A stretch of 64,000 nucleotides of DNA from a virus: IMG/VR virus record IMGVR_UViG_3300023179_000020, one strand, 5' to 3'. Shown here piece after piece: positions 17,619-46,324 of the stretch. The notes below the pieces were generated by a model. The model saw only the letters and a list, made by a program, of their open reading frames with translations. It did not search any database and had not been told where the DNA came from. The first letter of the stretch is position 1, and the number at the start of each line of letters is the position of its first letter. The translations under genes and the position numbers were made by a program.

Positions 17619-18180
17619 ATTAACTGATTTATTAAAAGAAGTAGAAGATCAAAAATATACTATCTATTGTGACATGGATGGAGTATTAGTAGACTTTGAT
17701 AAGGGTTATAAGGATTTAACAGGAATGTCTACTAAAAAAGCTAATACGTATCCTAAAATGTTTTTTTGGAGATTTTTTAGAAAGAAATTAAAAGAAAAAA
17801 AAATGGATGAAAAAGATTTTTGGGCTAATTTAGAATCTTATCCTGGAAAAGAAGAATTATGGTCCTATATATCACCATACAAACCAAATATACTTTCATC
17901 CCCATCAATAGACTTTAAACTCCCTCCAAATCAACAACTTGACCCAGAGTATAATGAAGCTATTCAGGGTAAAAAAGCATGGATTTCAAATAATTTAAAT
18001 AATGTAAATAAAGAAATTTTTGTTCCTGCCTCTCAAAAACAACAATTTTCTGGCGAAAATAAAATACTTATAGACGATAGAGAAGACAATATAGAACAAT
18101 GGAAAAGTAAGGGAGGAATAGGTATCCTTCACACTTCTGCTTCTGACACAATTAAACAATTAAAAGAATTAAAATTATGA
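17611..18180 (+). CDS. HAD-family 5'(3')-deoxyribonucleotidase-like phosphatase with MIKLTDLLKE leader
   Basis: IYCDMDGVLVDF (motif I), ILSS, K, ILIDD...N..W...GG.GI. Confidence 0.8.
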   Translation: MIKLTDLLKEVEDQKYTIYCDMDGVLVDFDKGYKDLTGMSTKKANTYPKMFFWRFFRKKLKEKKMDEKDFWANLESYPGKEELWSYISPYKPNILSSPSIDFKLPPNQQLDPEYNEAIQGKKAWISNNLNNVNKEIFVPASQKQQFSGENKILIDDREDNIEQWKSKGGIGILHTSASDTIKQLKELKL

Positions 18181-30781: not shown

Positions 30782-31564
30782 ATGAATAAAGAATTTTTAA
30801 GAATGCAACAATTAGCTGGTATTATTACTGAAAGTGAGTATAAAACTAATACTTTATTTGAAGGAGAAGAAGCTGAAACTATTGATCAAGTCCCTAACAA
30901 TATATTAAACATCATATCTAAAGCTACTGCCCAACCAGTTGAAAAAATTAAACAATTAGCTAAACAAGAAACTTCCACCCCTGAGGATAAAGTTGATGAA
31001 TCAGCTGTTTTAACTGCTGTTACAATAGCTGGATTAATTCCTTTAGCTATGGATGCTATAGGAGGTGTATCAAATTGGGTTTCTCGTAACACTGGAAAAA
31101 ATGAAGCTGAAATAGCACAATTAAAAAAATTTAATGAAAAAATTAAAGAAAAAGAAGAATTAATAAAGAATTTAGATAAAAAAGATGCTAAAAGTGAAAT
31201 GAGAGAAAGAGAACTTTTAAATAAATTAAAAAAACAAAGAGATGATATGTGGGGTTCTGATTTTGGGCAATGGATGAAAAAAAAAGCTCATGGGTTACAT
31301 CATGCTTATACTTGGCCTATTAGAACCTTATTAAAATGGGTTGGATTTATAACAGGAAATAAAAAATTAAAAAATAAAGAATTTAGAGAAAAATTAGCTA
31401 ATATACTATATGCTATTACGATGACTGGAATAGCTGGGGTTGGTATTCTTTCCCATTTAGGACATCTTACAGGAGTAGCCCCAGTAGCTATGACTATAGC
31501 AGATGGAGTTAAAGGAGGAAAAAGTATAGGTGAAATAGTTAATTCTATTGGTTTAGCAATTTAA
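30782..31564 (+). CDS. RMQxLAG-tagged protein with hydrophobic helices
   Basis: MNKEFLRMQQLAGIITE leader; hydrophobic AVLTAVTIAGLIPLAM and ILYAITMTGIAGVGIL. Confidence 0.65.
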   Translation: MNKEFLRMQQLAGIITESEYKTNTLFEGEEAETIDQVPNNILNIISKATAQPVEKIKQLAKQETSTPEDKVDESAVLTAVTIAGLIPLAMDAIGGVSNWVSRNTGKNEAEIAQLKKFNEKIKEKEELIKNLDKKDAKSEMRERELLNKLKKQRDDMWGSDFGQWMKKKAHGLHHAYTWPIRTLLKWVGFITGNKKLKNKEFREKLANILYAITMTGIAGVGILSHLGHLTGVAPVAMTIADGVKGGKSIGEIVNSIGLAI

Positions 31565-31597
31565 TAAAAAACAACATATTTATAAACAAAATTAAAA

Positions 31598-32044
31598 ATG
31601 AATATACTTGAAATTAAAAAAATGCAAAAAATTGCCGGAGTAATAACTGAAGGTGAATATAGAATGTTTATTGAGGCAATTCATGATGAAACTTTAGATG
31701 AAGGGTGGAAAAACTGGTTGTTAGGTGGTTTAATTACATTATCAACTTTAGGAGGAATAGGTAAAGTATATCAAATGGATCAACAAGCAAAAGCTGATAA
31801 AGCTAAACAAGTTGAATATTACAATAATGTTCTTAGTAACGAAGTTACTAAAATGAATGATGATGATCTTTTTAAACTAGGATCAGACATTAGTGATAAA
31901 ACAGGTGAAATGAAAGGTAATTCCAATGCTGACTCAGATACATATAAAAAAATGATGATAAATTACGCTAAGGATTATATTAAGAATCATCCAAACAAAT
32001 TTGCAGTAGGAATAAATGGTGGAATTTATGCCTTATCTAAATAA
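31598..32044 (+). CDS. RMQxLAG-tagged protein with hydrophobic helix
   Basis: KKMQKIAGVITE leader; LDE followed by GWKNWLLGGLITLSTLGGIG. Confidence 0.65.
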   Translation: MNILEIKKMQKIAGVITEGEYRMFIEAIHDETLDEGWKNWLLGGLITLSTLGGIGKVYQMDQQAKADKAKQVEYYNNVLSNEVTKMNDDDLFKLGSDISDKTGEMKGNSNADSDTYKKMMINYAKDYIKNHPNKFAVGINGGIYALSK

Positions 32045-32078
32045 CACATATTTATAAACAAATAAAAACCAAAATAAA

Positions 32079-32729
32079 ATGCAAGTAGAAAAATTACGTA
32101 CTCTTATAAGAGAATCTATCAACGAATATATTAGAGAAATTGAACAAGCAGCTAATGAAGCAGCTGTAGATGCTAGTATCACTAAATGTGAAGAAGCAAT
32201 CCAATCACGTCAAGAAAGACTAAATAAGATTAATGAAAATGATGATCTTAAAGAAATGGTTGATGAAACTAAAGTAAAAAATATTCAAGCCGAAATTAAA
32301 ATTTTAGAGAAAGCTAAGAAAAAATACGCTGCTCAAAAAGCTAAAATGCAAGCTAAAAAGGATAAAAAAGCAAATCCTGAAAAAGAAGTAACTACTGATG
32401 CTCCTATTGATGAAGCTGATGTAACAGCTGAAATGAACATGCCTGACAATACACAAGAAGAAGCATTAAACGAATCTTTTATTCGTATGCAAAAACTTGC
32501 AGGTATTATTAATGAAAATAAAAGTAAAATAGAAACAATTTTGAGTAAAATAGGTGATATTGAAGAAAAAATATATGATCAATATGGTGACGATGAAATA
32601 GAAGCTAAATTTGATTATAGTAAAGCTATAGATGATATTAAATCAAAATATAAAAATGACGAAAGTGGAATGTATGATGCTTTAATATCTCATTTAAAAA
32701 AACTAAAATCAACATTCCCAATAAAATAA
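32079..32729 (+). CDS. Coiled-coil protein carrying both leader types
   Basis: N-terminal KLRTLIRESINE; internal LNESFIRMQKLAGIINE. Confidence 0.65.
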   Translation: MQVEKLRTLIRESINEYIREIEQAANEAAVDASITKCEEAIQSRQERLNKINENDDLKEMVDETKVKNIQAEIKILEKAKKKYAAQKAKMQAKKDKKANPEKEVTTDAPIDEADVTAEMNMPDNTQEEALNESFIRMQKLAGIINENKSKIETILSKIGDIEEKIYDQYGDDEIEAKFDYSKAIDDIKSKYKNDESGMYDALISHLKKLKSTFPIK

Positions 32730-32734
32730 AATAA

Positions 32735-32818
32735 GGTACTAGAAAAGAATTTGAAAATAAATTCAATCTAAATGGTGGGAGACTTAGTCAACTAATTAAT
32801 AATAAAATATTAAAATAA
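32735..32818 (+). pseudogene. Possible remnant of a homing-endonuclease C-terminal HTH domain
   Basis: Start-less frame GTRKEFENKFNLNGGRLSQLINNKILK* in intergenic DNA. Confidence 0.3.
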
Positions 32819-32825
32819 ACATATA

Positions 32826-32904
32826 GACCGATTCATAGCCGGTCGCTCTAAACAGAGACAAAAATATGGTAGCTGTGGCACTCCTAAAAAGGTGCCACTT
32901 TTTT
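32826..32904 (+). ncRNA. Candidate structured RNA: H-type pseudoknot overlapping an intrinsic terminator
   Basis: GACCG/CGGTC stem; loop CATAGC pairs with GCTGTG (32872-32877); terminator GTGGCAC/GTGCCAC + T-tract. Confidence 0.45.
32875..32904 (+). terminator. Intrinsic terminator
   Basis: GTGGCAC(32875-32881)/GTGCCAC(32892-32898) followed by TTTTTT. Confidence 0.75.
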
Positions 32905-32905
32905 G

Positions 32906-32936
32906 TTTGTTTTTTAAATAAAATTTATTATCTTTA
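32906..32936 (+). promoter_or_regulatory. Bacteroidota-type sigma70 promoter (-33/-7)
   Basis: TTTG(32906-32909)-N19-TATCTTTA(32929-32936), one mismatch to TAnnTTTG, 4 nt before the ATG at 32941. Confidence 0.55.
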
Positions 32937-32940
32937 GAAT

Positions 32941-34248
32941 ATGAAAAATAAAAAAATAGTAATTGTAGGAGCAGGTGTAGCAGGCATTAATGCCGCGACA
33001 AAATTAGTAGATAATGGCTACCCAGGTGAGTTAATCACTATTATTGATAAAGGAAATGATCCACACAATCGTTTACCTGAGGAAGTAATGACAGGTATGT
33101 TAGGTGCTGGTGGTTGGAGTGATGGTAAATTAACATATCACACTGCAATTGGAGGTGTATTATCAAAGTATTGTGGTGAAGAGAAAGCAATGGAATTGAT
33201 GGATCAAGTCATTAATAACTTTAGACGTTTCCATCCTAAACCAGAAGAAATATTTTGCTCTGACCCACAATCAGAACCTGAATTTATTAAACCATATTTT
33301 GGTTTACGTTTATTTCCTGTATGGCATATTGGTTCAAATTATCTTCACGAGATTGCTAAAGCATGGTATCAATATTTAGTGGATAAAGGTGTTAGATTTG
33401 AATGGGAAACAGAAGTAGAGGACATTGATTTTAATAATAATAAAGTTTATACTCATAATACTACATTACAATATGATTCTTTAATATTTGCTGTAGGTAA
33501 AAGTGGTATTGACTTTGCTCAATCATTATCAAACCAATACCAACTACCTACAGAACCAAAATCAGTACAAATTGGAGTCCGTTACGAGGCACCACAAAAA
33601 TACTTTCAAAAACTAATTGATATCAGTTATGATTTTAAACTATACCAAAAGTTTGATAATGTATCGTTAAGATCATTTTGTACTAATAATAACGCAGCTT
33701 ACGTCGCAGTAGAGGAAACATATGGTGACATTAGTTACAATGGTCATGCTAAAAAAGGTGAAGAATTTAAAAACGATATGACCAACTTTGGTATCCTAAT
33801 GGAAATTAAAGGTATTGAAAATCCATTTGAATGGAGTAGAGAAATAGTTAAGAAGTGTCAATTTGATTTACCCGTAGCTAAAAAATCTGGTTTATATTAT
33901 TCACCTAATTTAACTCGAAAACCAAGTTTAACATCAGAAAATAATACAGTCGATAGTTATCAAATCGTTGAGTTAAGCTGGTTTAAAGACGCATTTAGTG
34001 AATATGCCGATTATATTCTTAATTTTATCGACCAAATGAATGAAGTATTTGAATTTGGTGATGATTGGGGTATGTATATTCCTGAAGTAAAATATGTCTC
34101 TGCAGAGCCTCTTGTTAACTATGATGATTTAAGTCTTACAACATACAACAATATTCATTTTGCCGGAGACGCTTTATCAGCTAGAGGTATAACAGTAGCA
34201 GGCAGTCAAGGTATTTACATTGCTGAAGGTATTTTAAAAAAAATGTAA
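32941..34248 (+). CDS. FAD-dependent oxidoreductase (HI0933/YhiN-like)
   Basis: Rossmann IVIVGAGVAG, GAGGWSDGKL, RSFCTN, NGHA, C-terminal FAGD...RGI..AG..G. Confidence 0.8.
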   Translation: MKNKKIVIVGAGVAGINAATKLVDNGYPGELITIIDKGNDPHNRLPEEVMTGMLGAGGWSDGKLTYHTAIGGVLSKYCGEEKAMELMDQVINNFRRFHPKPEEIFCSDPQSEPEFIKPYFGLRLFPVWHIGSNYLHEIAKAWYQYLVDKGVRFEWETEVEDIDFNNNKVYTHNTTLQYDSLIFAVGKSGIDFAQSLSNQYQLPTEPKSVQIGVRYEAPQKYFQKLIDISYDFKLYQKFDNVSLRSFCTNNNAAYVAVEETYGDISYNGHAKKGEEFKNDMTNFGILMEIKGIENPFEWSREIVKKCQFDLPVAKKSGLYYSPNLTRKPSLTSENNTVDSYQIVELSWFKDAFSEYADYILNFIDQMNEVFEFGDDWGMYIPEVKYVSAEPLVNYDDLSLTTYNNIHFAGDALSARGITVAGSQGIYIAEGILKKM

Positions 34249-34277
34249 GTATTTAATTTCTGGTGATATTTATAATT

Positions 34278-34886
34278 ATGAAATATTATGTATATCATTG
34301 GATTAGAAAAGATACTAATAAACCTTTTTATGTAGGAAAAGGAACAGGTAATAGAGCAGGTCATAAAAAATCAAATAAAGGATGGAAAAATATTACTTCT
34401 AAAGTTGAATGCTTTTGGGAAATTATTAAGTATTTTGATGATGAACAAACCGCATATCTATATGAACATACTCTTATTGAAGAATATAAAAAATTAGGGT
34501 ACAAAATAATTAATCAAACTAAATATTCTAAAGGTGGAGGTACTTGGGCATATACTGATGAAGTAAAACAACGTCAAAGTGAAAATAGAAAAGGTAAAGG
34601 TTTAGGACCTCGAAGTAAAGAATGGAAGCAAAATATTAGTAAAGCAAACAAAGGTAGAAATATATTATGGGCTAATAAAATAGGGGATGCCCTTAGAGGA
34701 AAACCTAAAAATTATTTAAGTCACCATAAACCAATACTCCAATATGATCTTCAAGGTAATCTACTTAATGAATACCAGTCAGCACAAGAAGCAGGTAGAT
34801 GTCTAAATAAATCAGGTAATCAAATAGCAGATTGCGCCTCAGGTAGGCAAAAAACCGCTTATGGTTATATTTGGAAATATATATAA
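34278..34886 (+). CDS. Freestanding GIY-YIG homing endonuclease (NUMOD)
   Basis: YYVY...PFYVGKG...RA, E..LI, N; C-terminal ILQYDLQGN...KTAYGYIW. Start reassigned to ATG 34278. Confidence 0.8.
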   Translation: MKYYVYHWIRKDTNKPFYVGKGTGNRAGHKKSNKGWKNITSKVECFWEIIKYFDDEQTAYLYEHTLIEEYKKLGYKIINQTKYSKGGGTWAYTDEVKQRQSENRKGKGLGPRSKEWKQNISKANKGRNILWANKIGDALRGKPKNYLSHHKPILQYDLQGNLLNEYQSAQEAGRCLNKSGNQIADCASGRQKTAYGYIWKYI

Positions 34887-34894
34887 TAAAACAT

Positions 34895-35152
34895 ATGGAA
34901 GAAGAAAAAAAGTATCAACTAGACCCAACACTAGAAACTAAAAAGTACACATCAACAGACGGTACAATTCGTTACATGAAAGATGGAAAATTACACAACT
35001 GGGATGGTCCAGCCGTAATCCACCCAGATGGTAAAGAAGAGTATTTTATTAATGGTTTTCAACATGACAAAGATAGTCATCATAAAGCAAAACGTGATGG
35101 AATTGGGTTACCTTGGTTTAAGAGTAGTGTAGGTAAAGGATCACGATCTTAG
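34895..35152 (+). CDS. Hypothetical protein with LH..DGPA motif
   Basis: DGKLHNWDGPAVIHPDGKEEYFING; start reassigned to ATG 34895. Confidence 0.6.
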   Translation: MEEEKKYQLDPTLETKKYTSTDGTIRYMKDGKLHNWDGPAVIHPDGKEEYFINGFQHDKDSHHKAKRDGIGLPWFKSSVGKGSRS

Positions 35153-35203
35153 TTTTTTTTTGATATTTATAATAAAATATACTAATTTAAAAAATAAAAG
35201 ACA

Positions 35204-35683
35204 ATGAACAAAGAGTTCCTTAAAATGCAAAAAATGGCTGGTATTATTACTGAAGGTCAATACCAAGAAAAATTAAATAAGACTCAAACTCCTTCTCCCA
35301 ACGAATGTCAGCGTATTATAGAGTTATATATAGACAGTCATGATGCTGAATATGTCGCTGGTTTCTTTGATGACACCCACAAAAGAGAAGTAGCAGCATA
35401 TTTGAAATCACTTAAACCATACCCTAAAGTAAGAACAGTAGAAGAACTAGCATCTACTATTAAAGAAATAGATGACAAAATAAATGAAATTACAAACTAC
35501 CCAGAAGATCTTTTTGATGAAGAAGTAATACCTCGATTAGAACAAATAGCTTCTAATAATCCTAATCTAAAAAACGCGGTAGATAAAGTATTAGTTGTAT
35601 TAAATGAACTATATGGTAGAAATAATGATGAAGATGATGAAGATGATGAGTTTGGTTGGAAGACTGATTATGATGAATTCTAA
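35204..35683 (+). CDS. RMQxLAG-tagged acidic protein
   Basis: MNKEFLKMQKMAGIITE leader; TATTTATA at 35164. Confidence 0.65.
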   Translation: MNKEFLKMQKMAGIITEGQYQEKLNKTQTPSPNECQRIIELYIDSHDAEYVAGFFDDTHKREVAAYLKSLKPYPKVRTVEELASTIKEIDDKINEITNYPEDLFDEEVIPRLEQIASNNPNLKNAVDKVLVVLNELYGRNNDEDDEDDEFGWKTDYDEF

Positions 35684-35702
35684 AAAACAGTATTTTAAAT
35701 TA

Positions 35703-35736
35703 GGCTTGGGAAACCAGGCCTTTTTTATTATATTAC
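35703..35736 (+). promoter_or_regulatory. GAAA-tetraloop terminator overlapping a TTG-N20-TATATTAC promoter-like element
   Basis: GGCTTGG-GAAA-CCAGGCC-TTTTTT; TTG at 35706, TATATTAC at 35729. Confidence 0.55.
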
Positions 35737-35740
35737 TAAT

Positions 35741-36271
35741 ATGAAGATAGGACTATGTGGAACAATGAGTGTTGGCAAATCAACACTAGTACATGCTTTA
35801 AAAGAATTACCTGAATTTAAAGATTATTTCTTTGCTACTGAACGTAGTAAATACTTACGTGATTTAGGTATTCCATTAAACACTGATAGTACATTAAAAG
35901 GTCAAACAATATTCTTAGCTGAACGTTGTTCTGAACTAATGAGAGAAAATGTTATTACTGATAGAACAATTATCGATGTGATGGCTTTTACTCAATGTGC
36001 CAAGTCAATTTGTCAAGATGATAAAAATGCATTTGTTAAATATGCTGCTCCATTTATTTGGGACTATGATTATGTTTTTTATGTGTCTCCTATTGGTGTA
36101 AAAATTGAAGATAATGGTGTTAGAGAAACTAATGCTGATTATCGTGAATTAATTGATTTTACTATAAAAAGCACAATACATGAACATTTAAATCAAATTA
36201 AAAATCTAGCATTCATTTCAGGCACTACTGAAGAAAGAATTAAACAGATTAAAGGTTACTTAGGTTTCTAA
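35741..36271 (+). CDS. P-loop NMP-kinase-like protein (NadR/Ttd14 AAA_28-like)
   Basis: IGLCGTMSVGKST, ITDRT.ID, YD.VFY, EDNGVR. Confidence 0.75.
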   Translation: MKIGLCGTMSVGKSTLVHALKELPEFKDYFFATERSKYLRDLGIPLNTDSTLKGQTIFLAERCSELMRENVITDRTIIDVMAFTQCAKSICQDDKNAFVKYAAPFIWDYDYVFYVSPIGVKIEDNGVRETNADYRELIDFTIKSTIHEHLNQIKNLAFISGTTEERIKQIKGYLGF

Positions 36272-36298
36272 TATTTATGGCCAAAAACTATAAATACA

Positions 36299-37084
36299 AT
36301 GAAACTATCTGAATTAAGAAAACAAATAGAAGATACTATTACGGAGATATTAACTATTACTCCCGGATCTAACGCTATGGATGTAAAAAATGCGGCTAGA
36401 CAAAAAGGAGTACCACAAGCTGCGGTAACCTCAGCATTACAACAAGCTAATACCTCTGGACAATCAGTGACATTAACTGGAAAAGTAGCTGAATCAGACG
36501 AAGACGTAGAAGATACTTATGGTAAAGAAGATGAAGATGATAAAAAAGATGCTAAAATAGCTAACGCTAAGCCATCAAAATCAGATTTGAAAAAAAATGC
36601 TAGTATAGCTACTATAACAGATGCTATAGCTAAATTAGTTATAGATCGTAAAAATGTTAATGAAAAATATAAGAAAGCCGAAGGTAAAGAAAAAGCAAAG
36701 TTGTTAGATGAATTAAAAGACCTAACATCTAAAATACAATCATTAGATAAAATTCTTAAAGAAAAAGAGAAAACTCTTAAAGAAAATAATTTAAAAACCA
36801 AAACTATGAAAAAATCACAATTGCAACAAATCATTAAAGAAGAAATTCAAAAAATTTTAAAAGAAGCAAAAGAAATTAAAGTTGATATATACAGTGCTGA
36901 GACTATAACTTTAAATGGAAAACCCCTAGACTCAGACAAAATGAATAGCACTAAATATAGAAATATGCTTTTATCACAACCTGATAAAGCATTTATGTAT
37001 AAAGGAAAACCCGTCTCTCTTGACGCTATTGATCCAGCTGATGGTTCACAAGATGATCCAAAAATTTATTTAAGAGCTGATTAA
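36299..37084 (+). CDS. Hypothetical protein, apparent fusion of two leader-tagged modules
   Basis: MKLSELRKQIEDTITE leader; second leader MKKSQLQQIIKEEIQKILKE starting at ATG 36806. Confidence 0.6.
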   Translation: MKLSELRKQIEDTITEILTITPGSNAMDVKNAARQKGVPQAAVTSALQQANTSGQSVTLTGKVAESDEDVEDTYGKEDEDDKKDAKIANAKPSKSDLKKNASIATITDAIAKLVIDRKNVNEKYKKAEGKEKAKLLDELKDLTSKIQSLDKILKEKEKTLKENNLKTKTMKKSQLQQIIKEEIQKILKEAKEIKVDIYSAETITLNGKPLDSDKMNSTKYRNMLLSQPDKAFMYKGKPVSLDAIDPADGSQDDPKIYLRAD

Positions 37085-37122
37085 TTAAAAATTACTTAAC
37101 ATAACCCTATAAAGGGACAGTT

Positions 37123-38694
37123 ATGTCTCAAGACTTAAAACAAATAATACGAGATGAGTATGTAAAGTGTTCAAAAGATCCGGCGCACTTTATGAAAAAA
37201 TACTGCCACATCCAACACCCAACTCGTGGTAGAATTATATTCAATCTTTACCCATTCCAAGAAAAAGTATTACGTTTATGGAGAGACAATCCATATAACA
37301 TAGTACTCAAATCCAGACAATTAGGAATTTCAACCTTAACTGCTGGTTATTCATTATGGTTAATGTTGTTTCAAAAGGATAAAAATATCCTTTGCATTGC
37401 TACTAAACAAGAAACTGCTAAAAACATGGTTACAAAGGTAAAATTCATGTTTGAAAATTTACCTTCTTGGTTAAAAGTACCTGCAGATGAAAACAATAAA
37501 CTAACACTTCGACTTAATAATGGTTCTCAAATCAAAGCAGTTTCAGCAGCAGGTGATGCGGGTCGATCAGAAGCAGTATCACTCCTAATAATAGACGAGG
37601 CTGCCTTCATTGACGGAATTGGTGAAATATGGGCTTCTGCTCAACAAACCTTAGCAACTGGTGGTGGAGCCATTATATTATCAACTCCATTTGGTACTGG
37701 TAATTGGTTTCATCAAACATGGGTAAGAGCAGAAGCACAAGACAATGACTTTTTACCAATCAAATTGCCTTGGTATGTTCACCCTGAACGTGATGAAAGT
37801 TGGAGAAAAAAACAAGACGAATTATTAGGAGACCCAAGATTAGCAGCACAAGAATGTGACTGTGACTTTAATACTTCAGGTGATACTGTGTTCTACAATG
37901 AACAATTAGATTTTATTTTAGCAACGTCTATTAAGGATCCCTTGGAAAAACGTGGAATTGATCATAACTTATGGATATGGGAATTACCCGATTATACAAG
38001 AAACTATATGGTTGTTGCTGACGTTGCTCGTGGGGATGGAAAAGACTTTTCAACATTTCACGTAATAGACGTTGAAACAAATACACAAGTTGCTGAATAC
38101 AGAAGTCAACTTTCACCAAAAGAATTTGGTTATTTGTTAGTAAGCATTGCAACAGAGTATAATGATGCATTGTTAGTTGTTGAAAACGCTAACATAGGCT
38201 GGTCAACTCTTGATGCAATTATAGAAAGAGGATACAGAAATTTATACTATTCTCCAAAAACTGAAGCATTAAACGCTGAATCATACTTAGAAAGAACAGA
38301 TGACCCATCAAGAATGGTACCTGGTTTTACAATGTCTATGAGAACAAGACCATTAGTCATAAACAAATTCAGAGAATACATAGGAGACAAAAGTGTAAAC
38401 ATACAGTCTCGTCGTTTATTTGAAGAAATGAAAGTGTTTATTTGGAAAAATGGTAGACCTGAAGCACAATCTGGTTATAATGATGATTTGGTTATGAGTT
38501 TTGCAATTGGAATGTATGTTCGTGATACAGCTTTAAAATTTAAAACCCAAAACCTAGACTTAACCCGAGCTGCTTTAAAAAACATAGCAACAGTTAGACA
38601 AAACCCTCAAGGTAACTATACAACTAATGGTCAAGCAAATCCTTACCAAATGAATATTAATGGAAGGAATGAGGATATTAGTTGGTTACTATAA
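37123..38694 (+). CDS. terL: Terminase large subunit (T4 gp17-like)
   Basis: LYPFQ, KSRQLGIST (Walker A), LLIIDEAAF (Walker B), STPFG, VADVARGDG.DFS and NDDLVMS nuclease motifs. Confidence 0.95.
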   Translation: MSQDLKQIIRDEYVKCSKDPAHFMKKYCHIQHPTRGRIIFNLYPFQEKVLRLWRDNPYNIVLKSRQLGISTLTAGYSLWLMLFQKDKNILCIATKQETAKNMVTKVKFMFENLPSWLKVPADENNKLTLRLNNGSQIKAVSAAGDAGRSEAVSLLIIDEAAFIDGIGEIWASAQQTLATGGGAIILSTPFGTGNWFHQTWVRAEAQDNDFLPIKLPWYVHPERDESWRKKQDELLGDPRLAAQECDCDFNTSGDTVFYNEQLDFILATSIKDPLEKRGIDHNLWIWELPDYTRNYMVVADVARGDGKDFSTFHVIDVETNTQVAEYRSQLSPKEFGYLLVSIATEYNDALLVVENANIGWSTLDAIIERGYRNLYYSPKTEALNAESYLERTDDPSRMVPGFTMSMRTRPLVINKFREYIGDKSVNIQSRRLFEEMKVFIWKNGRPEAQSGYNDDLVMSFAIGMYVRDTALKFKTQNLDLTRAALKNIATVRQNPQGNYTTNGQANPYQMNINGRNEDISWLL

Positions 38695-38702
38695 TATTTA
38701 TG
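38695..38702 (+). promoter_or_regulatory. TATTTATG late-promoter-like motif before portal
   Basis: Directly after the TerL stop, 19 nt before the portal ATG. Confidence 0.55.
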
Positions 38703-38721
38703 GTAAATAATACAATTTATA

Positions 38722-40611
38722 ATGGCTGATACAAGTATCTTTACAAGGTTAAGAAAATTATTCTCAACTGATGTTATAATCCGCAATGCTGGTGGTAATC
38801 AGTTAAAAGTAATGGATGTGAATAGCATTCAAAAAAGTGGAGAATTTCAAACCAATGCTTTAGTTGACAGATACAACCGAATCTATTCAAGCAACAGTAC
38901 ATCTTTATTTGGAGCCCAATTAAATCTTAACTGGAGATACCTTCGTACTCAAGTATACTCAGATTACGATGCAATGGATACAGATGCTATTGTAGCCTCT
39001 GCTTTAGACATTATAGCTGATGAATGTACTCTTAAAAATGACATGGGAGAAGTACTTCAAATCAAAAGCAGCAACGAAGACACACAAAAAATACTTTATA
39101 ATTTGTTCTATGATGTGTTAAACATTGAGTTTAATTTGTGGTCATGGATTAGACAAATGTGTAAGTATGGTGATTTCTTTTTAAAATTAGAAATTGCTGA
39201 AAAATTTGGAGTATACAATGTTATCCCTTACATGGCTTACCACATCATGAGAGAAGAAAATTATGACCCTGCCAACCCAGCTGAAGTAAGATTTGCTTTC
39301 TCACCAGATGGTTTTTCAGGTGGTTCTACAGGTTTTTATGGTGTGACAGGTAAAGGAACATATAGTCCTAACAAAAATGATAAAAATATCTATTTTGATA
39401 ATTATGAAATGGCTCATTTTAGACTAGTAGCTGATACTAATTATCTTCCTTATGGTCGTTCATACTTAGAACCAGCACGTAAATTGTTTAAACAATACAT
39501 TTTGATGGAAGATGCTATGCTGATTCATCGTATTGTTCGTGCCCCTGAAAAAAGAATATTTTACATAAATGTAGGTTCTATTCCTCCTAATGAAGTTGAA
39601 AACTTTATGCAAAAGACAATTTCACAGATGAAAAGAACACCATTCATCGACCCACAAACTGGTGAATATAATTTAAAGTATAATTTACAAAATTCATTAG
39701 AAGACTTTTACATTCCAGTTAGAGGAAACGATACAACAACTAAAATTGAACCTACAAAAGGTTTAGATTATACAGCAATTGAAGACGTTACTTACTTAAG
39801 GGATAAATTATTTGCTGCTTTAAAAGTTCCTAAAGCATTTATGGGTTATGAAAAAGACTTAACCGGTAAAGCAACATTAGCAGCAGAAGACATTCGTTTT
39901 GCTCGTACAATTGATAGACTACAACGCATTATACTTTCAGAATTATACAAAATTGCATTAGTACATTTGTATACTCAAGGTTATAGAAACGAAGCATTAA
40001 CCAATTTTGAATTATCATTAACTACTCCTTCAATCATTTATGATCAAGAAAGAATAGCGTTAATGAGAGAAAAAGTATCATTAGCAAAAGACATTGTTGA
40101 CGGTAAATTATTACCTACAGATTGGATTTATGATAACATTTTCCACTTAAGTGAAGACCAATACGATGAATACAGAGATTTAATTGTTGAAGACCAAAAA
40201 CGAATCTTTAGGTTTAAACAAATTGAAAATGAAGGAAACGACCCATTAGAATCTGGCAAATCATATGGTACACCTCATGACTTAGCTGCTTTATACGGGG
40301 CAGGAAGAAACAATATGGGAGTACCTGACGGATACGATAAAGATGAAATATTAGGAAGACCAACCGAAAAATCATCAACTATGGGTACTCAACAAAATGC
40401 TTTAGGAAAAGACAGATTAGGAAGCATGGGTATGAAAAAAGGTGATGCTACAGGTGAAGATGCATCTATAAAAAACAGTTTTAAAGGAGGATCCCCACTA
40501 GCCTTAGAAACTAAATTAAAAAATAAATCATTGTTAGAGTCTTTAGACAAAAAGTTGTCTATTAAAAAAGAAGATTCTTCACTGTTAGATGAATCTCAAA
40601 TACGAGAATAA
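38722..40611 (+). CDS. Portal protein (T4 gp20-like)
   Basis: PYGRSYLE.AR, LMEDAMLIHRI.RAPEKRIFY, EDFYIPVRG, LF.ALKVPK; directly follows TerL. Confidence 0.93.
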   Translation: MADTSIFTRLRKLFSTDVIIRNAGGNQLKVMDVNSIQKSGEFQTNALVDRYNRIYSSNSTSLFGAQLNLNWRYLRTQVYSDYDAMDTDAIVASALDIIADECTLKNDMGEVLQIKSSNEDTQKILYNLFYDVLNIEFNLWSWIRQMCKYGDFFLKLEIAEKFGVYNVIPYMAYHIMREENYDPANPAEVRFAFSPDGFSGGSTGFYGVTGKGTYSPNKNDKNIYFDNYEMAHFRLVADTNYLPYGRSYLEPARKLFKQYILMEDAMLIHRIVRAPEKRIFYINVGSIPPNEVENFMQKTISQMKRTPFIDPQTGEYNLKYNLQNSLEDFYIPVRGNDTTTKIEPTKGLDYTAIEDVTYLRDKLFAALKVPKAFMGYEKDLTGKATLAAEDIRFARTIDRLQRIILSELYKIALVHLYTQGYRNEALTNFELSLTTPSIIYDQERIALMREKVSLAKDIVDGKLLPTDWIYDNIFHLSEDQYDEYRDLIVEDQKRIFRFKQIENEGNDPLESGKSYGTPHDLAALYGAGRNNMGVPDGYDKDEILGRPTEKSSTMGTQQNALGKDRLGSMGMKKGDATGEDASIKNSFKGGSPLALETKLKNKSLLESLDKKLSIKKEDSSLLDESQIRE

Positions 40612-40649
40612 CATTTCATACATATTTATAACTAAAATATTAGCCAAGA

Positions 40650-41504
40650 ATGGTAATTAAACATTCAAAGTACAAAAATACTGGGATCCTTTTTGAACTA
40701 CTTGTTAGACAAATTACAGCTGATACTTTATCAGGTGATGCTTCCCCAGCTACTACCATTTTAAAAAAATACTTTACTAAAACTGAATTAGGAAGAGAGT
40801 ATAAGTTGTATGAAAGCTTTTTTAAGCATACTAATATTAGTGAGGCTAAAGCTGATATGGTTATAACAACTCTTGTTGAAAGTTCAAAGTATTTAAACCG
40901 TTCTATACTAAAAAGACAAAAATATAATTTGATTAAAGAGATTAAGGCGCATTACAATTTAGAAGAGTTTTTTAAAACTAAACTTCCTAATTATAAAGCA
41001 CAAGCCGCTTTATTTACTCTTTTAGAAGTGTATAACAGTGAAAACTTATCCAACCCAAATCAAATTATAGAAAATAAAACCGCGCTTTTAGAATTTTTAA
41101 CTAAAGGACCTATTAACAAAACAGAAGTTAAAAACAATATTTTAGAAGAATTTAAACATCAAGATAAAGATATTCGTGTTTTAGCATATAGAGTACTACT
41201 TGAAAAATTTAATGACAAATACTCAAATTTAAATTCAAACCAAAAAATCATATTAAAAGAATTTATAAACAGTGTTGATAATACTCCCAAATTAAAAGAA
41301 TTTTACAACACTAAAGTATTTGAAATTAAAACCCAATTATCAGTACTTAACAAATCAGTTTCTAACCCTGCCACTAAAATAAAAATCAACGAAGTAATAA
41401 ATATTTTACCTGTTTTAAGCAAAAACGACAGAATTAATGATGACCAATTAGTAAATCTTTTACAATACTGTGAATTGATAGAAGAATTAAAAATTGTAAA
41501 ATGA
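40650..41504 (+). CDS. Conserved head-morphogenesis-region protein
   Basis: KHSKYKNTGILFELLVRQIT N-terminus; lies between portal and protease. Confidence 0.55.
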   Translation: MVIKHSKYKNTGILFELLVRQITADTLSGDASPATTILKKYFTKTELGREYKLYESFFKHTNISEAKADMVITTLVESSKYLNRSILKRQKYNLIKEIKAHYNLEEFFKTKLPNYKAQAALFTLLEVYNSENLSNPNQIIENKTALLEFLTKGPINKTEVKNNILEEFKHQDKDIRVLAYRVLLEKFNDKYSNLNSNQKIILKEFINSVDNTPKLKEFYNTKVFEIKTQLSVLNKSVSNPATKIKINEVINILPVLSKNDRINDDQLVNLLQYCELIEELKIVK

Positions 41505-42004
41505 ATAAAAAAGACCAAATACGTGAATTAATTCAAAAGCGTTTAAAAGAAATAAGCGCTACAGGCACTGGTGCTTCTTTTACTGCTGGTACTGGTGCTA
41601 ATTATGCTACACCTAATGCTTTTAATCCAAATAAAAAGGCTAAAGGTGCTAAAAACATTTATTATTACAAATTAGGATTCAAACCAGTAAACCAAAAAGC
41701 TTTAAATAAAAAGGCTAAAGGCATTGAAGTAAAACATTTGTGGGAAGAAGAAACACCTAAATTTGACATTGAAGGATTTGTAAGTGCTTTACAAACTGAT
41801 AATGAAGAATTAAAAAAATACATAGCAGGACGTTTAGGAGACTTTGATTTACTTGCTAGCAAATTAAAAGAACTTATTGAATTAATACAAGAAGCTAAAA
41901 AAGAAACAATAAACAGTTACAGAGAAAATCCTGAATTTAAAGCTGTTTATGGTACAGATTTAGCAATTTCATTAATAGACGACACTATAAAACTATTTAC
42001 ATAA
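41501..42004 (+). CDS. Putative prohead core protein with leader
   Basis: QIRELIQKRLKE leader, then SATGTG..YATP.AF. Confidence 0.5.
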   Translation: MNKKDQIRELIQKRLKEISATGTGASFTAGTGANYATPNAFNPNKKAKGAKNIYYYKLGFKPVNQKALNKKAKGIEVKHLWEEETPKFDIEGFVSALQTDNEELKKYIAGRLGDFDLLASKLKELIELIQEAKKETINSYRENPEFKAVYGTDLAISLIDDTIKLFT

Positions 42005-42005
42005 A

Positions 42006-43271
42006 ATGAGAAATACATTACAAGAACAATATAACCTTATTAAAGAAGGTAAAGGTAATAAACAGCAATTTTTTAAATCTGCTCGTCATTTATTCCCTAA
42101 TTTAATTACTCCTGTTAACACATTAAATGATGCTGTTACCATCCTTAAAAACAAAGGTATCATTAGTGAAATGTTTGTAGGAGGAGGTGTAGTTACTAAA
42201 GGTAAAACACCTGATTGGTTTTCTATTTTTAAAGAAAACATAACTGAGTATGGAGAAGACTCAGGTGGACAAGATATGACATACGGAATGTATAATAGAT
42301 CATCAGCCCGTAAAAATCAAGGCATTCAAGACTTTATAAATAAAGGAAAAGAAGATTATTATGATGATGTACCATATGAAGCATGTCCATATGAAGATGG
42401 TTATAATAAATATTATAAAGCAGATTTAGCTAAATTATGGCAAATGGGATGGAAAGAAGCAGAAATATCAAGCAATGAAGAAAACATAACTGAATTATCA
42501 GGAAAATTTGGTTCTAAAGAAGAAGTTACCGTTATTAATAATAAAACTGGTAAAAAAGCTAAAGCAATGATTACCAGCACATCAATGAGTACAGGTACAG
42601 GAATAGAATATAATCTTAAATATTCTGGTGAAAAACCAAATGGATTCCCAGACACTATAAAAGATGATGATTTAGACTCAACATATTCTTTAAAAAGATT
42701 AACTGAAGCTAAAGAAGCTAAAGCTGAAGAAAAAGAAACTACTAAAGAAGTAACTGACATGGCAACACGTGGTTACGACTATAAAGACACTAAAAACATT
42801 GATAACATTTTTGGTACTGCGTTTTTAAAAGGATTCTATAGTGAAATGCAAGATCCAAAAAACGAGGACAAAACAGTTGAAGAATTAAAACAAATCGTAG
42901 CTAAAAATTTAGCTAAAGACTGTTTACACTATGTTAAAAACAGCCCATTTGGTGTTGAAGGAGCTGGTTATTCAGTAGAAGCACCTGGATTAGGCGAACC
43001 AAAACCTGCTAAAGGTAAACACAAATCTTCAGGTTATGGTGATTTAAAAGAATCAGTTTTACGTTCTCAAATTCATTTGTTAGTAAAAGAAGTATTAGCT
43101 GAAAGTAAAATTAGTGAAGATCAATTTGAAAAAGCACTTAAAATGCATAAAAAAGGCAAATCACCCGAAAACATAGCTAAAGAATTAAAAATTGATCCGG
43201 TTATATTAAAAAACCAACTAAAAAAATACAAAGAAGAAAAAGAAAATTTAAAAACAAGTGATAAGGGCTAA
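42006..43271 (+). CDS. Modular putative head-core protein
   Basis: Segments delimited by IKE, ISE, ITE, ITE, LTE, LKE, LAE; located just before the protease. Confidence 0.55.
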   Translation: MRNTLQEQYNLIKEGKGNKQQFFKSARHLFPNLITPVNTLNDAVTILKNKGIISEMFVGGGVVTKGKTPDWFSIFKENITEYGEDSGGQDMTYGMYNRSSARKNQGIQDFINKGKEDYYDDVPYEACPYEDGYNKYYKADLAKLWQMGWKEAEISSNEENITELSGKFGSKEEVTVINNKTGKKAKAMITSTSMSTGTGIEYNLKYSGEKPNGFPDTIKDDDLDSTYSLKRLTEAKEAKAEEKETTKEVTDMATRGYDYKDTKNIDNIFGTAFLKGFYSEMQDPKNEDKTVEELKQIVAKNLAKDCLHYVKNSPFGVEGAGYSVEAPGLGEPKPAKGKHKSSGYGDLKESVLRSQIHLLVKEVLAESKISEDQFEKALKMHKKGKSPENIAKELKIDPVILKNQLKKYKEEKENLKTSDKG

Positions 43272-43273
43272 TT

Positions 43274-43882
43274 ATGAAACAAGTACTTATTGAAACCCAA
43301 ATATTTTCTGCTAAACCAGTTAAACTAGTTGAAGGTAAAGGTGGTAATAGCAATTTATTAGTTGAAGGAATACTAGCAACAGCCGAAGTAAAAAACGGTA
43401 ACGGCCGTTACTACTCAAAAGATTTATGGGAAAGAGAAATTAATAAGTACATGGAGAATGTAAAATCAAATCGTGCTTTAGGTGAACTAGACCATCCCGA
43501 TTCTCAAATCATCAATTTAAAAAACGTATCCCACAACATTAAAAAAATATGGTGGGATAATGATAATGTAATGGGAGCAATAGAAATTTTACCTACACCT
43601 TCAGGCAACATATTAGCAGCATTATTCCAAAACAACATTCCAGTAGGTGTATCATCACGTGGTATGGGCTCATTAAAACAAATGGGAGAAATAATGGAAG
43701 TACAAGACGATTTTGAATTGTTGTGTTTTGACTTTGTTTCTACCCCATCTAACCCAGGATCATTCATGCACCCAGTAGGACAAATACATGAAGGATTATC
43801 ATCTCCGATTAACCCATATTCTAAAGTTAATTCAATAGTAACTGAGATTCTTTGCGCAAACGGAACCTGTCCAATTTTTTAA
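43274..43882 (+). CDS. Prohead core protease (T4 gp21-like)
   Basis: N.NGRYY, ALGELDHP, VSH, GVSSRGMGS, DFVSTPS. Confidence 0.93.
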   Translation: MKQVLIETQIFSAKPVKLVEGKGGNSNLLVEGILATAEVKNGNGRYYSKDLWEREINKYMENVKSNRALGELDHPDSQIINLKNVSHNIKKIWWDNDNVMGAIEILPTPSGNILAALFQNNIPVGVSSRGMGSLKQMGEIMEVQDDFELLCFDFVSTPSNPGSFMHPVGQIHEGLSSPINPYSKVNSIVTEILCANGTCPIF

Positions 43883-43932
43883 TCCAACGTATTCTTTCAA
43901 AATCTTTGACATATTTATAATAAAATATAGAT

Positions 43933-44607
43933 ATGCTAAAACTTTGCCCTACTTGTAATAAAACTAAAGAATTAATTGAGTTTAATAAAAATAAAAATCG
44001 TAAGGATGGTTATCAACGTGAATGTAAGAGTTGCTGTCATAATCATCATAACAAATATTATCATACTAAAAAATCTCCTCGTTTAAAAGAAAATATAAAA
44101 GAAGGACATAAAGTATGTACTAGTTGTAAACAAGAATTGTTACTAACTGAATTTAAACCAGGAAAAGGACGTTTTGGAGTCGGGGCAAATTGCAAAATAT
44201 GTTTTAATAAAAAATGGAATGATTATCAAAAAAGAACAGGCCAAAATAAAAAACATAACAAATTAAAACGTCAAACAGATATACAATGGAAACTTAAAGC
44301 TAATCTTAGAGGTAGATATTTAGACGCTCTTAAACGCCACACTTCAGGCGGCAAAGTAAACAAACATCACTCAGCTATAGATTTATTAGGTTGTAGTATA
44401 GAATTTTATAAACAATATTTAGAACAACAGTTTAAACCAGATATGAACTGGGAAAATCATGGAATACTATGGGAGATAGATCATATAAAGCCATGTGCTG
44501 TTTTTGATTTAACAAATTCTAAACACCAACAAGAATGTTTTAATTATACAAACACCCAACCTTTATATTACTCAGATAATAGAAGTAAAGGAGATAAATA
44601 TTTATAA
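43933..44607 (+). CDS. HNH-type (His-Me finger) putative homing endonuclease with Zn-finger repeats
   Basis: Two CxxC...CxxC repeats; LLGC...L..QF...MNWENHG..WEIDHIKP...NYTN.QPL...N..K. Confidence 0.75.
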   Translation: MLKLCPTCNKTKELIEFNKNKNRKDGYQRECKSCCHNHHNKYYHTKKSPRLKENIKEGHKVCTSCKQELLLTEFKPGKGRFGVGANCKICFNKKWNDYQKRTGQNKKHNKLKRQTDIQWKLKANLRGRYLDALKRHTSGGKVNKHHSAIDLLGCSIEFYKQYLEQQFKPDMNWENHGILWEIDHIKPCAVFDLTNSKHQQECFNYTNTQPLYYSDNRSKGDKYL

Positions 44608-44609
44608 TT

Positions 44610-44783
44610 ATGGAAAAACAAGAATTAAACGAAGAATTTTTTAAAATGCAAAAACTTGCAGGTTTAATTACTGAAGAAGAATATAAAGCTAGATTATGGT
44701 ATAAACAATATTCTGAAAATATATCTAAAGCCTTAGATGATTTAAAACAAACATTAAAAAATGAAGGCTATGATATTAAATGA
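44610..44783 (+). CDS. 57-aa RMQxLAG-tagged peptide, not in the supplied ORF track
   Basis: Hand translation MEKQELNEEFFKMQKLAGLITEEEYKARLWYKQYSENISKALDDLKQTLKNEGYDIK; TATTTATA at 44599. Confidence 0.7.
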   Translation: MEKQELNEEFFKMQKLAGLITEEEYKARLWYKQYSENISKALDDLKQTLKNEGYDIK

Positions 44784-45018
44784 AGATAATAAATCTATTT
44801 TAGATCTAGTAAATTATATAGATTCTAAAATTGTAGCTCTTCGTAATGATAACAAATTTTCTAAAAATACTATAGATAGTTTATCTAATTTGTATAATTT
44901 AACTGTTGGAGAGTGGATGAGTAAAAATTACATAACTGATATTGAACCTGGTTCTAATGAAGAAGAAGAAATAGTAAATAAACTTTTAGAAGTAATCGAT
45001 TTTTTAAATAAACTTTAA
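44770..45018 (+). CDS. Hypothetical protein (MILNE...)
   Basis: Overlaps the end of the 44610 ORF; start at 44761 or 44770. Confidence 0.5.
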   Translation: MILNEDNKSILDLVNYIDSKIVALRNDNKFSKNTIDSLSNLYNLTVGEWMSKNYITDIEPGSNEEEEIVNKLLEVIDFLNKL

Positions 45019-45045
45019 CCCCTCTTAGAATAGTATTTTAAGATT

Positions 45046-45078
45046 GATGCCTCTCAAAAAAGAGGCATTTCTTTTTTT
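45046..45078 (+). terminator. Intrinsic terminator
   Basis: GATGCCTCT/AGAGGCATT stem followed by TCTTTTTTT. Confidence 0.7.
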
Positions 45079-45214
45079 AAAAAGCGACTTTTCGTAGATC
45101 CGTATATATGTATATTCAAATATGCTACCCTTTCCCCTTATGTAGCATTAATTAGTTAACAATCTATTACGTTTATAATAAGCGTATTTCCAAAACAAAA
45201 TTATTTGAGGACAA

Positions 45215-46324
45215 ATGAACAGAGAAATGCTTAAAGAAGCAATTGCTGAAGCTAAAACTATTAGAGAAACAGCAATTGAAAGCGCAAAAATCGCCCTTGA
45301 AGAAGCTTTTACTCCCCAATTAACAGCTATGTTTGCTGAAAAGTTAAACGAGTTGGAATTAGAGGAAAAAGAAGAAAAGGACGAAACAAATGAAATGTAC
45401 GGTATGGAAGAAGAAGGATTAGAAGAAAATTTTAATCTTGAAGAACTTCTTGCCGAGTTAGAGGAAGCTGAATTACAAGCTGAAGCAGAAGACATGAAAA
45501 CAGAAAATCTTGATGAAGATTTAATGCTTGAAGAAATGTCTGACGAGGAAATTGAAGAACTTGTAAAATCAGTAATCGACGACATGATTGCATCTGGTAA
45601 GCTTATGGCTGGTGAAGAAGCCGAAGACGAGGACATGGACATGGATGACATGGACATGGATGATATGGACATGGGTGACGAGGAAGAAATTGAAGACGAA
45701 GAAGAAGAAGAAATTGATGAAGACATCAATCTTGAAGAACTTCTTGCTGAAATTGATTCTGAGAAAAAAGAAGTAGTAAACGAAGAATTTTTTGATCCTG
45801 AAACTTTAAAATTAGTAGCTCAAGCTGCTGAATTTCTTAATGTAAGTAAAGATGCTATAATGGGAATGATAGCAGGATTACCTGGAGCAGCAGTTGCTGC
45901 TGCGTTTTTAAGAGCTACAATGAAAGCTAAAAAAGAAGCAAAAAGTGGAAAAGTTGATGAAACAACTGATACTACTGAAATGGAAGAAACAATTAACGAG
46001 TTGAGAAATGAGTTAAACGAAGTAAACCTTTTAAATGCTAAACTTCTTTATACCAACAAAATCTTCAAAGCTAAGAATCTTACCGAATCAGAAAAAATTA
46101 AGGTTTTAAACACATTTGACAAAGCAGAAACTGTTAAAGAAGTTAAACTCGTATTTGAAACTCTAACTGAATCTTTTAAAACTACTACAGTTAAAAAGAA
46201 CCCAATTAAAGAATCATTAGGATCAGCTTCTAGAACAATTGCCCCTGCTACCCCTAAACAACCAATAATCGAGGTTAACAGCGCGTTTGCTCGTATGCAA
46301 CAACTCGCAGGCCTCAAAAAGTAA
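45215..46324 (+). CDS. Prohead scaffolding protein
   Basis: Very acidic coiled-coil protein between protease and capsid genes; many L/I-x-E sites; LNEVNLLNAKLLY; ends FARMQQLAGLKK. Confidence 0.8.
   Translation: MNREMLKEAIAEAKTIRETAIESAKIALEEAFTPQLTAMFAEKLNELELEEKEEKDETNEMYGMEEEGLEENFNLEELLAELEEAELQAEAEDMKTENLDEDLMLEEMSDEEIEELVKSVIDDMIASGKLMAGEEAEDEDMDMDDMDMDDMDMGDEEEIEDEEEEEIDEDINLEELLAEIDSEKKEVVNEEFFDPETLKLVAQAAEFLNVSKDAIMGMIAGLPGAAVAAAFLRATMKAKKEAKSGKVDETTDTTEMEETINELRNELNEVNLLNAKLLYTNKIFKAKNLTESEKIKVLNTFDKAETVKEVKLVFETLTESFKTTTVKKNPIKESLGSASRTIAPATPKQPIIEVNSAFARMQQLAGLKK

Follow-up and report, generated by a model that had tools for sequence, protein, structure and literature searches.

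A short peptide, N-x-x-F-x-[RK]-M-Q-K-L-A-G-[ILV], closes the head scaffold protein encoded on IMG/VR record IMGVR_UViG_3300023179_000020 and recurs in five other proteins of the same virus. The DNA analysed here, a stretch of 64,000 nucleotides that we refer to as the window, belongs to an uncultured T4-like phage whose hosts are probably flavobacteria. We argue that the peptide is likely to be a capsid-targeting signal, copied from the extreme C-terminus of the scaffold and removed by the prohead protease. In what follows the copy that ends the scaffold is called the tail, the copies on other proteins are called tags, and the proteins that carry them are called cargo.

Six copies of one motif in the window

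The pattern [RK]-M-Q-[QK]-[LIM]-A-G has six copies in the window, each in an open reading frame (ORF) of the + strand. The count expected from amino-acid composition is 1.4e-4, and 300 shuffles produced 0 copies. There is no seventh copy in any of the six frames of the window, looser patterns included. The codons for L, A, G, R and N vary among the copies, therefore the likeness has been kept at the protein level and is not the product of a recent DNA duplication; a repeat at the DNA or RNA level is ruled out on the same grounds.

Four of the five non-scaffold copies begin at residue 1-2. Three of these are N-terminal tags that end in I-T-E, namely in ORF 30782-31564 (residues 1-17, positions 30782..30832), ORF 31598-32044 (residues 1-18, 31598..31651) and ORF 35204-35683 (residues 1-17, 35204..35254). 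The cargo of the first is a protein of 260 amino acids with Gly-rich hydrophobic segments; the second protein (148 amino acids) has cargo homologs with the same tag in the relative loci L108 and L112, and the third (159 amino acids, acidic) has a tagged homolog in locus L090. The fourth N-terminal tag, in ORF 44610-44783 (57 amino acids), spans residues 1-22 (44610..44675) and consists of L-N-E, the core and L-I-T-E. This gene sits inside the head module, and relatives have a version of 56-64 amino acids near the scaffold gene. The remaining copy is internal to ORF 32079-32729 (residues 130-146, 32466..32516), where it runs from L-N-E to I-I-N-E, with a conserved coiled-coil N-domain before it and a variable C-domain after it. 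The same internal layout is found in L083:1656, in P0017 and in about 12 other loci.

Directly after each of the five non-scaffold copies stands [ILV]-I-[TN]-E; in the scaffold, K-K and the stop come next. With the tag removed, the five proteins fall into separate BLAST clusters. A preliminary description of the window had placed six copies of the motif at these positions, the five outside the scaffold in otherwise unrelated proteins and each followed directly by I-[TN]-E, and all of this is borne out by our analysis.

The tag matches the conserved end of the scaffold

The head scaffold protein (369 amino acids) is encoded at 45215..46324 on the + strand and is conserved in 68 relatives. We identify it as the scaffold because its gene lies directly upstream of the capsid gene, because it is acidic, and because its start is gp22-like, i.e. 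the N-terminus resembles that of T4 gp22 in having a short helix that ends I-A-E. This start is followed by an acidic middle, a three-helix domain and a flexible linker. The tail, which comprises the last 16 residues (46274..46321, + strand), lies past a conserved P-I-x-E site and consists of a predicted short helix, a glycine and a three-residue hook, L-K-K in the window and I-I-K or I-K in most relatives.

For a survey of scaffold tails we fetched 80 capsid relatives from IMG/VR, in 68 of which the upstream ORF is present. Of these scaffolds, 64 end in R-[MWF]-[QKR]-K-L-A-G-[IL] plus 0-5 residues (the motif being 1-6 residues from the stop), and P-I-x-E precedes the motif at a fixed distance. 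The motif is therefore the scaffold's own C-terminal sequence, as had been supposed from the window. More distant phages carry it too. The nearest cultured relative of the window is Flavobacterium phage immuto (53% capsid identity), after which come, in order of capsid relatedness, Microcystis phage Mel-JY01, the uncultured phage LR756508 (484 kb), Rhodothermus phage RM378 and the uncultured phage LR756511 (595 kb). The scaffold tail of Mel-JY01 has M-K-K-L-A-G and that of LR756511 has K-T-L-A-G; LR756508 ends in R-M-Q-K-L-A-D, a variant with L-A-D; and RM378 ends in I-K-R-L-A-G-L-stop on a scaffold body that is otherwise unrecognisable when compared with the window's. The window tail thus shares with 64 of 68 relatives and four distant phages what marks a scaffold terminus, a place at the extreme C-terminus in a gene next to that of the capsid protein.

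When tags and tails are aligned on the glycine they agree at 13 positions, N-x-x-[FV]-x-R-[MWF]-Q-K-L-A-G-[ILV]. A profile built only from the scaffold tails of other phages ranks the window scaffold first (E-value 7e-11) among 728 frames of at least 30 residues, and the five tagged ORFs take ranks 2-6, with the tag of ORF 30782-31564 as the second-to-third best match. Whole-genome regular-expression scans of RM378 and Mel-JY01 found no further motif copy and no tagged proteins. As the tail is present in distant phages and these two lack tags, the scaffold copy is ancestral and the tags are derived from it, which agrees with the direction of copying that was proposed from the window alone. The tags keep M at the position where scaffolds have W or F, so this position is uninformative on the binding partner; co-variation between scaffold and tag was dropped as a line of evidence for this reason.

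Some observations on other scaffolds may be added here. The gp22 of Prochlorococcus phage P-SSM4 (L231) has P-L-V-E-S-N followed by a 17-residue tail of another sequence, in a layout like that of the window, and T4 gp22 (L082) ends in yet another tail. A cut site with a short terminal peptide may be general for scaffolds of the gp22 type. In LR756508 (L230), two small ORFs at about 2126 and 2397 start with divergent tag-like leaders, R-[LF]-Q-E-L-A-G, one of which is followed by L-S-E. Together with the R-M-Q-K-L-A-D scaffold end, these leaders are possibly a divergent version of the same system.

A protease site adjoins the tag

The residues past the glycine are close to invariant. In 117 tags, I and E are each found in 117/117 and T in 113/117, and scaffolds have no E at the position of I-T-E. 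Among the best global matches described below, h-h-T-E (hydrophobic-hydrophobic-T-E) stands directly after 152 of 156 cores. The specificity of T4 gp21 is L/I-x-E, with cleavage after Glu (PMC9026906), and by its sequence the I-T-E of the tag is a protease site of this T4 type. A matching enzyme is at hand. The gene at 43274..43882 (+ strand) encodes a prohead protease of the T4 gp21 family (Pfam Peptidase_S77 1.7e-30; PHROG head maturation protease 1.2e-57), so the gp21-type protease that had been assigned to this position is present, and its expected site is on the tags and not on the scaffold copy.

A further site, L-[NS]-E, is found just upstream of the core in the longer leaders and in all internal copies. 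With L-[NS]-E upstream and I-T-E downstream, the tag should be excisable as a peptide of about 15 residues. A cut at P-I-x-E would likewise free the scaffold tail.

The tag is portable and restricted to one phage lineage

A degenerate DNA pattern for M-Q-K-L-A-G-x-I-T-E was searched in viral contigs and prokaryote genomes. It matches at least 120 viral contigs, and 185,579 prokaryote genomes (596 billion bases) hold one match. This sole match is a contig, binned in a Flavobacteriaceae metagenome-assembled genome, that is syntenic with the head module of the window; the scaffold tail is on it, as is the 57-residue gene with its tag. Among ten large viral contigs that bear tags, a capsid gene is present in eight (54-81% identity with that of the window), and the two without one are 38% and 61% complete. 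In seven of the eight with a capsid gene the scaffold ends in the motif. The tag is virus-specific and restricted to this phage lineage. The preliminary description had counted a motif equally common in non-phage proteins as an argument against a packaging signal; one prokaryote match against at least 120 viral contigs is far from that.

Tagged frames were counted in the loci of the DNA-pattern matches listed together with the loci of capsid relatives, which gave 142 distinct frames. Among these, 111 have the tag no more than 25 residues from the first Met, and two leader forms, of 17 and 22 residues, are common. The 134 complete tagged ORFs of these loci form at least 83 cargo clusters, and the cargo proteins are mostly small. 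Tagged genes are often found two or three in tandem, and complete relatives have 0 to 4 each; Flavobacterium phage vB_FspM_immuto (NC_055915) has two, at 111675-112139 and about 25061-25456 of its record. The internal copies belong to two families, the 32079 family, with its conserved coiled-coil N-domain, tag and variable C-domain, and a family of proteins of 500-690 residues with the tag near the C-terminal end. The only annotation of the cargo is DUF6576 (4 of 126); otherwise there are viral hypothetical clusters only.

A profile of the 117 tags was compared with 1.84 billion cluster representatives. It retrieved 1,915 protein clusters at E<=1e-3, of which 88 reach E<=1e-10. Most of these matches begin at residue 2, and 138 of the 150 best are N-terminal; in a minority the tag is internal, doubled or C-terminal. 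Some proteins consist of two tag-plus-cargo modules, and two (874 and 969 residues) are tagged at both ends. Ten clusters that we sampled come from metagenome sources only. With 83 or more cargo clusters in the local set and about 1,900 in the global search, the idea that the tag is portable over unrelated proteins is well supported.

The leader can be exchanged as well as the cargo. The homolog of the 30782-type cargo in locus L027 (58% identity over 179 residues) has a different 18-residue leader that ends L-K-E, and window ORF 20237 has a different leader on a cargo domain that in six other phages bears the R-M-Q-K-L-A-G tag. In L109 one domain is a free-standing tagged protein, and a version of it (58% identity) is inserted in L043:6352 (561 amino acids), the homolog of window ORF 42006-43271. 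The latter is a conserved head-module protein upstream of the protease, and one that thus acts as a carrier polyprotein. Another tagged domain is the C-terminal part of a 20855-type protein. At least two further classes of N-terminal leader that end L/I-x-E are found on unrelated proteins of the window, M-I-K-L-T-D-L-L-K-E at 15016, 17611 and 24742, and M-K-x-x-E-L-K-Q-I-I-x-E-E-I at 18177, 28927 and 20237 and internally at 36806. The presence of other leaders or fusions on homologous cargo suggests that the tag is one of several equivalent ways of delivery. Such swapping fits a loading signal, and not a function tied to any one cargo.

A possible route into the prohead

From these sequences we infer binding, cleavage, packaging and ejection, as follows. 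During prohead assembly the scaffold tail, that is its putative short amphipathic helix, glycine and hydrophobic-basic hook, would dock on a conserved partner, most probably the gp23-type capsid protein's inner face or N-terminal region. Tagged proteins would take the same kind of site and thereby be built into the prohead. The S77 (gp21-type) protease would cut past the invariant I-T-E, and also at the upstream L-[NS]-E of internal tags and longer leaders, and scaffolds would be cut at their upstream P-I-x-E. Cleavage would free mature cargo inside the head and the tag would leave as a small peptide. The cargo would then remain in the head and reach the host together with the DNA, as the internal proteins of T4 do.

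We give the capsid protein about an even chance of being the predicted partner; the scaffold core is a less probable candidate, and any other component an unlikely one. The capsid protein is favoured because the RM378 tail outlives the scaffold body while capsid, portal and protease are conserved, because scaffold C-termini bind capsid proteins where structures exist, and because the scaffold tail of phage 80alpha binds the N-arm of its capsid protein and is copied by SaPI1 CpmB (PMC5644958). A wider and more tentative proposal, to which we assign somewhat less than an even chance, is that tail and tag are one shell-docking helix-and-hook for gp23-type capsids, that cargo competes with scaffold for sites on the capsid protein, and that the ~1,900 tagged clusters are the proteins that a large group of Bacteroidota phages injects.

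Several points weigh against this account. Mel-JY01 and RM378 keep the scaffold tail without tags, so the primary role of the tail needs no cargo. Pfam, PHROGs and the ESM Atlas are almost blank on the cargo, and nothing independently ties it to the virion. Structure prediction gave no confident docking. We modelled, as a single AlphaFold2 chain, the C-terminal 120 residues of the scaffold of a relative (L005), joined by a 13-residue intergenic linker to its capsid protein, with the TAA stops between the two genes read through and a block-diagonal alignment of 119 rows. The model is poor, with a predicted local distance difference test score (pLDDT) of 63.6 and a predicted template modelling score of 0.41. 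It does contain a DSSP helix over nine motif residues, then the glycine and three residues, at low confidence (pLDDT about 50-57). A sequence search of solved structures with the scaffold tail and the tag profile returned chance matches only. Finally, the internal proteins of T4 co-purify with the core protein gp22 and not with the shell (PMC9026906), thus the partner here may likewise be the core.

This last point is also where a rival account begins, in which the tag loads cargo via the scaffold core, e.g. via the three-helix domain of neighbouring scaffolds. The tail would then be a self-assembly element, and cargo would be co-polymerised as T4 internal proteins are. In T4, the capsid-targeting sequence (CTS) of internal proteins is described as conferring affinity for the core (PMC9026906), and its resemblance to the gp22 N-terminus is a possible precedent for imitating a scaffold end. 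A suitable domain also exists here, as AlphaFold2 predicts the three-helix domain confidently (pLDDT about 90), 33 disordered and flexible linker residues upstream of the tail. However, the program placed no tail on this domain in cis, the tail is kept in RM378, where the scaffold body is without similarity to that of the window and capsid, portal and protease are conserved, and scaffold C-termini bind capsid protein in phages with solved procapsids (PMC5644958). We consider loading via the core unlikely. Less probable again is that the prohead protease docks on the motif or uses it for extended recognition, with loading by other means. Here, the scaffold copy would recruit the protease to the core, and the other copies would make the adjoining L/I-x-E an efficient substrate. 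The near-constant flanking of the motif by L/I-x-E (scaffolds have it upstream, tags downstream and internal copies on either side) would be explained in this way, and the targeting of gp21-type proteases is unresolved in the literature (PMC9026906). Yet a short L/I-x-E motif suffices for T4 gp21 (PMC9026906), many leaders in the window end L-x-E without the motif, the scaffold copy stands at the very end, 10-11 residues past its cut site, and a protease present at tens of copies cannot explain loading. This makes it an improbable explanation of the motif.

It is very improbable, in our judgement, that the leader is unrelated to the head, be it as an export or membrane signal, a translation-enhancing 5′ coding leader or a functionless recombination cassette. 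Several cargo proteins do have hydrophobic Gly-rich segments, and tandem arrays of tagged genes often look recombinogenic. But the peptide is amphipathic and charged, and is without a hydrophobic core of signal-peptide length; copies also occur internally and at C-termini, with codons that differ; and the tag is identical to the scaffold tail and absent from cellular genomes. A Sec/Tat signal peptide was considered separately and rejected, as the longest hydrophobic run has no more than five residues, with acidic residues after it, and internal and C-terminal copies exist. The capsid-targeting reading, with its copy of the scaffold end and its removal by protease, is the one that we carry forward.

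Comparison with known systems

The closest parallel is the CTS of T4, which Mullaney and Black reportedly described on internal proteins in 1996. It is carried by the internal proteins IPI-III and by Alt, and is removed by gp21 (PMC9026906, PMC9958956). Like the CTS, the tag is a short and presumably removable leader found on unrelated small proteins that evolve fast; both end L/I-x-E, and in both the leader would suffice for loading. The phages are also alike in having an S77/gp21 protease, a gp23 capsid protein and cargo genes that are often in tandem. However, the ten-residue CTS pattern has two exact matches in T4 (IPII and IPIII) and none in the window. In the opposite direction the tag profile found no match in T4, in a search that also missed the Mel-JY01 tail, its filter being coarse for 20 positions. 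At 16-22 residues the tag is longer than the CTS, it matches the C-terminal tail of the scaffold at 13 positions, internal and C-terminal copies of it exist as well, and it is found on about 1,900 protein clusters as opposed to a handful. The preliminary description had called the system distinct from the T4 CTS. This holds for the sequence and for the apparent origin, and does not hold for the logic, which is the same in both (removable leader, L/I-x-E, S77 protease, hypervariable cargo).

In reviews of T4 only the ten-residue CTS is described (PMC9026906, PMC9958956), and the ways in which proteins are brought to the scaffolding core are said to 'remain mysterious' (PMC9958956, a 2023 review). 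The motif strings were not found in the literature that we searched. What is known, then, is the principle of a removable leader, a gp21-type protease and variable cargo; what is new is the tag described here, with its derivation from the scaffold tail, its placement anywhere in a protein and its spread.

The tail can be compared with that of the 80alpha scaffold, the last 16 residues of which form a helix-and-hook on the N-arm of the capsid protein, a feature that SaPI1 CpmB copies (PMC5644958). The 80alpha tail combines an amphipathic helix with a hydrophobic-basic hook (R-I-I-K), and a like arrangement is predicted, at low confidence, for the tail here (hook G-L-K-K in the window and G-I-I-K in most relatives). 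In both systems a second protein carries a copy of the scaffold end, CpmB using the same site. However, in SaPI1 the copy is part of an alternative scaffold with which the parasite alters capsid size. It does not tag cargo, is uncut and is C-terminal only. Furthermore, binding to the N-arm has been solved for 80alpha and is a prediction for the window tail. In sequence the two tails resemble each other in the hook only, perhaps by convergence.

Encapsulin cargo peptides are short, usually C-terminal, and route unrelated cargo inside a shell of the HK97 fold. They have a different consensus (rich in Gly, Ser and Leu), a shell gene next to that of the cargo, no removal by protease and no scaffold, so they are an analogy only. 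An encapsulin cargo-loading peptide was rejected as an identity for the tag, which is mostly N-terminal and is followed by a protease site, and which goes with a shell made of gp23-type capsid protein with scaffold, portal and terminase.

In the giant phages SPN3US, phiKZ and 201phi2-1, ejection proteins have long N-terminal propeptides (PMC5694885, PMC10052503). As with the tag, a gp21-related protease and a small-x-E site are involved, and the propeptide is inferred to target the prohead. These propeptides differ in being 80-160 residues long and protein-specific, with no shared cassette, and in being unrelated to a scaffold terminus, no scaffold having been identified there.

The value of this system is that the address label is visibly a copy of the conserved end of the scaffold. 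This provides a testable prediction, that the cargo is bound by the same partner as the scaffold tail. About 1,900 unrelated families without annotation in aquatic metagenomes carry the tag and are thereby likely to be delivered by virions; they are a large pool of candidate host-takeover or anti-defence factors. If the shell-docking reading is true, the injected proteome of these Bacteroidota phages could be read from sequence alone, and the question of how T4-type heads select their contents would have a concrete answer. A further use of the tag could be as a handle for packaging proteins in phages of flavobacteria, like the T4 CTS for E. coli.

Genomic context and additional observations

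The rest of the head module is T4-like, and its portal and capsid genes are on the + strand. A Terminase_6N gene (Pfam) is located at 37123, a T4-type portal at 38722..40611 (Pfam Portal_T4 6.6e-68) and the major capsid protein of the gp23 type at 46363..48096 (Pfam Gp23 1.1e-70). The capsid protein has a T4-like N-terminal propeptide that aligns with the T4 gp23 propeptide (E-value 3e-7). At least 599 capsid relatives of the window are found in IMG/VR, and a phage collection contained no nucleotide-level match to it.

Within the same module, ORF 41501-42004 (167 amino acids) has a Gly/Thr-rich stretch, T-G-T-G-A-S-F-T-A-G-T-G, that is closely resembled by T-G-T-G-A-T-F-T-V-G-T-G just past the predicted maturation site of the capsid protein (46363-46600). 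In Mel-JY01 (L209, 9185-9412) a gene for ribosomal protein bS21 lies between protease and scaffold; the window has none at that place. The Mel-JY01 gene matches those of the bS21-encoding clades of Bacteroidota phages that have been described (PMC9723584).

Genes that look like homing endonucleases interrupt the cargo array at 34263-34886 and the head module at 43933-44607. The former has a NUMOD1 domain, and the latter, between protease and scaffold, is Cys/His-rich. The PhoH-like ATPase at 48178-50010 has 610 amino acids, compared with about 229 in phage immuto, and the large insertion past its P-loop looks like an intein with a homing endonuclease.

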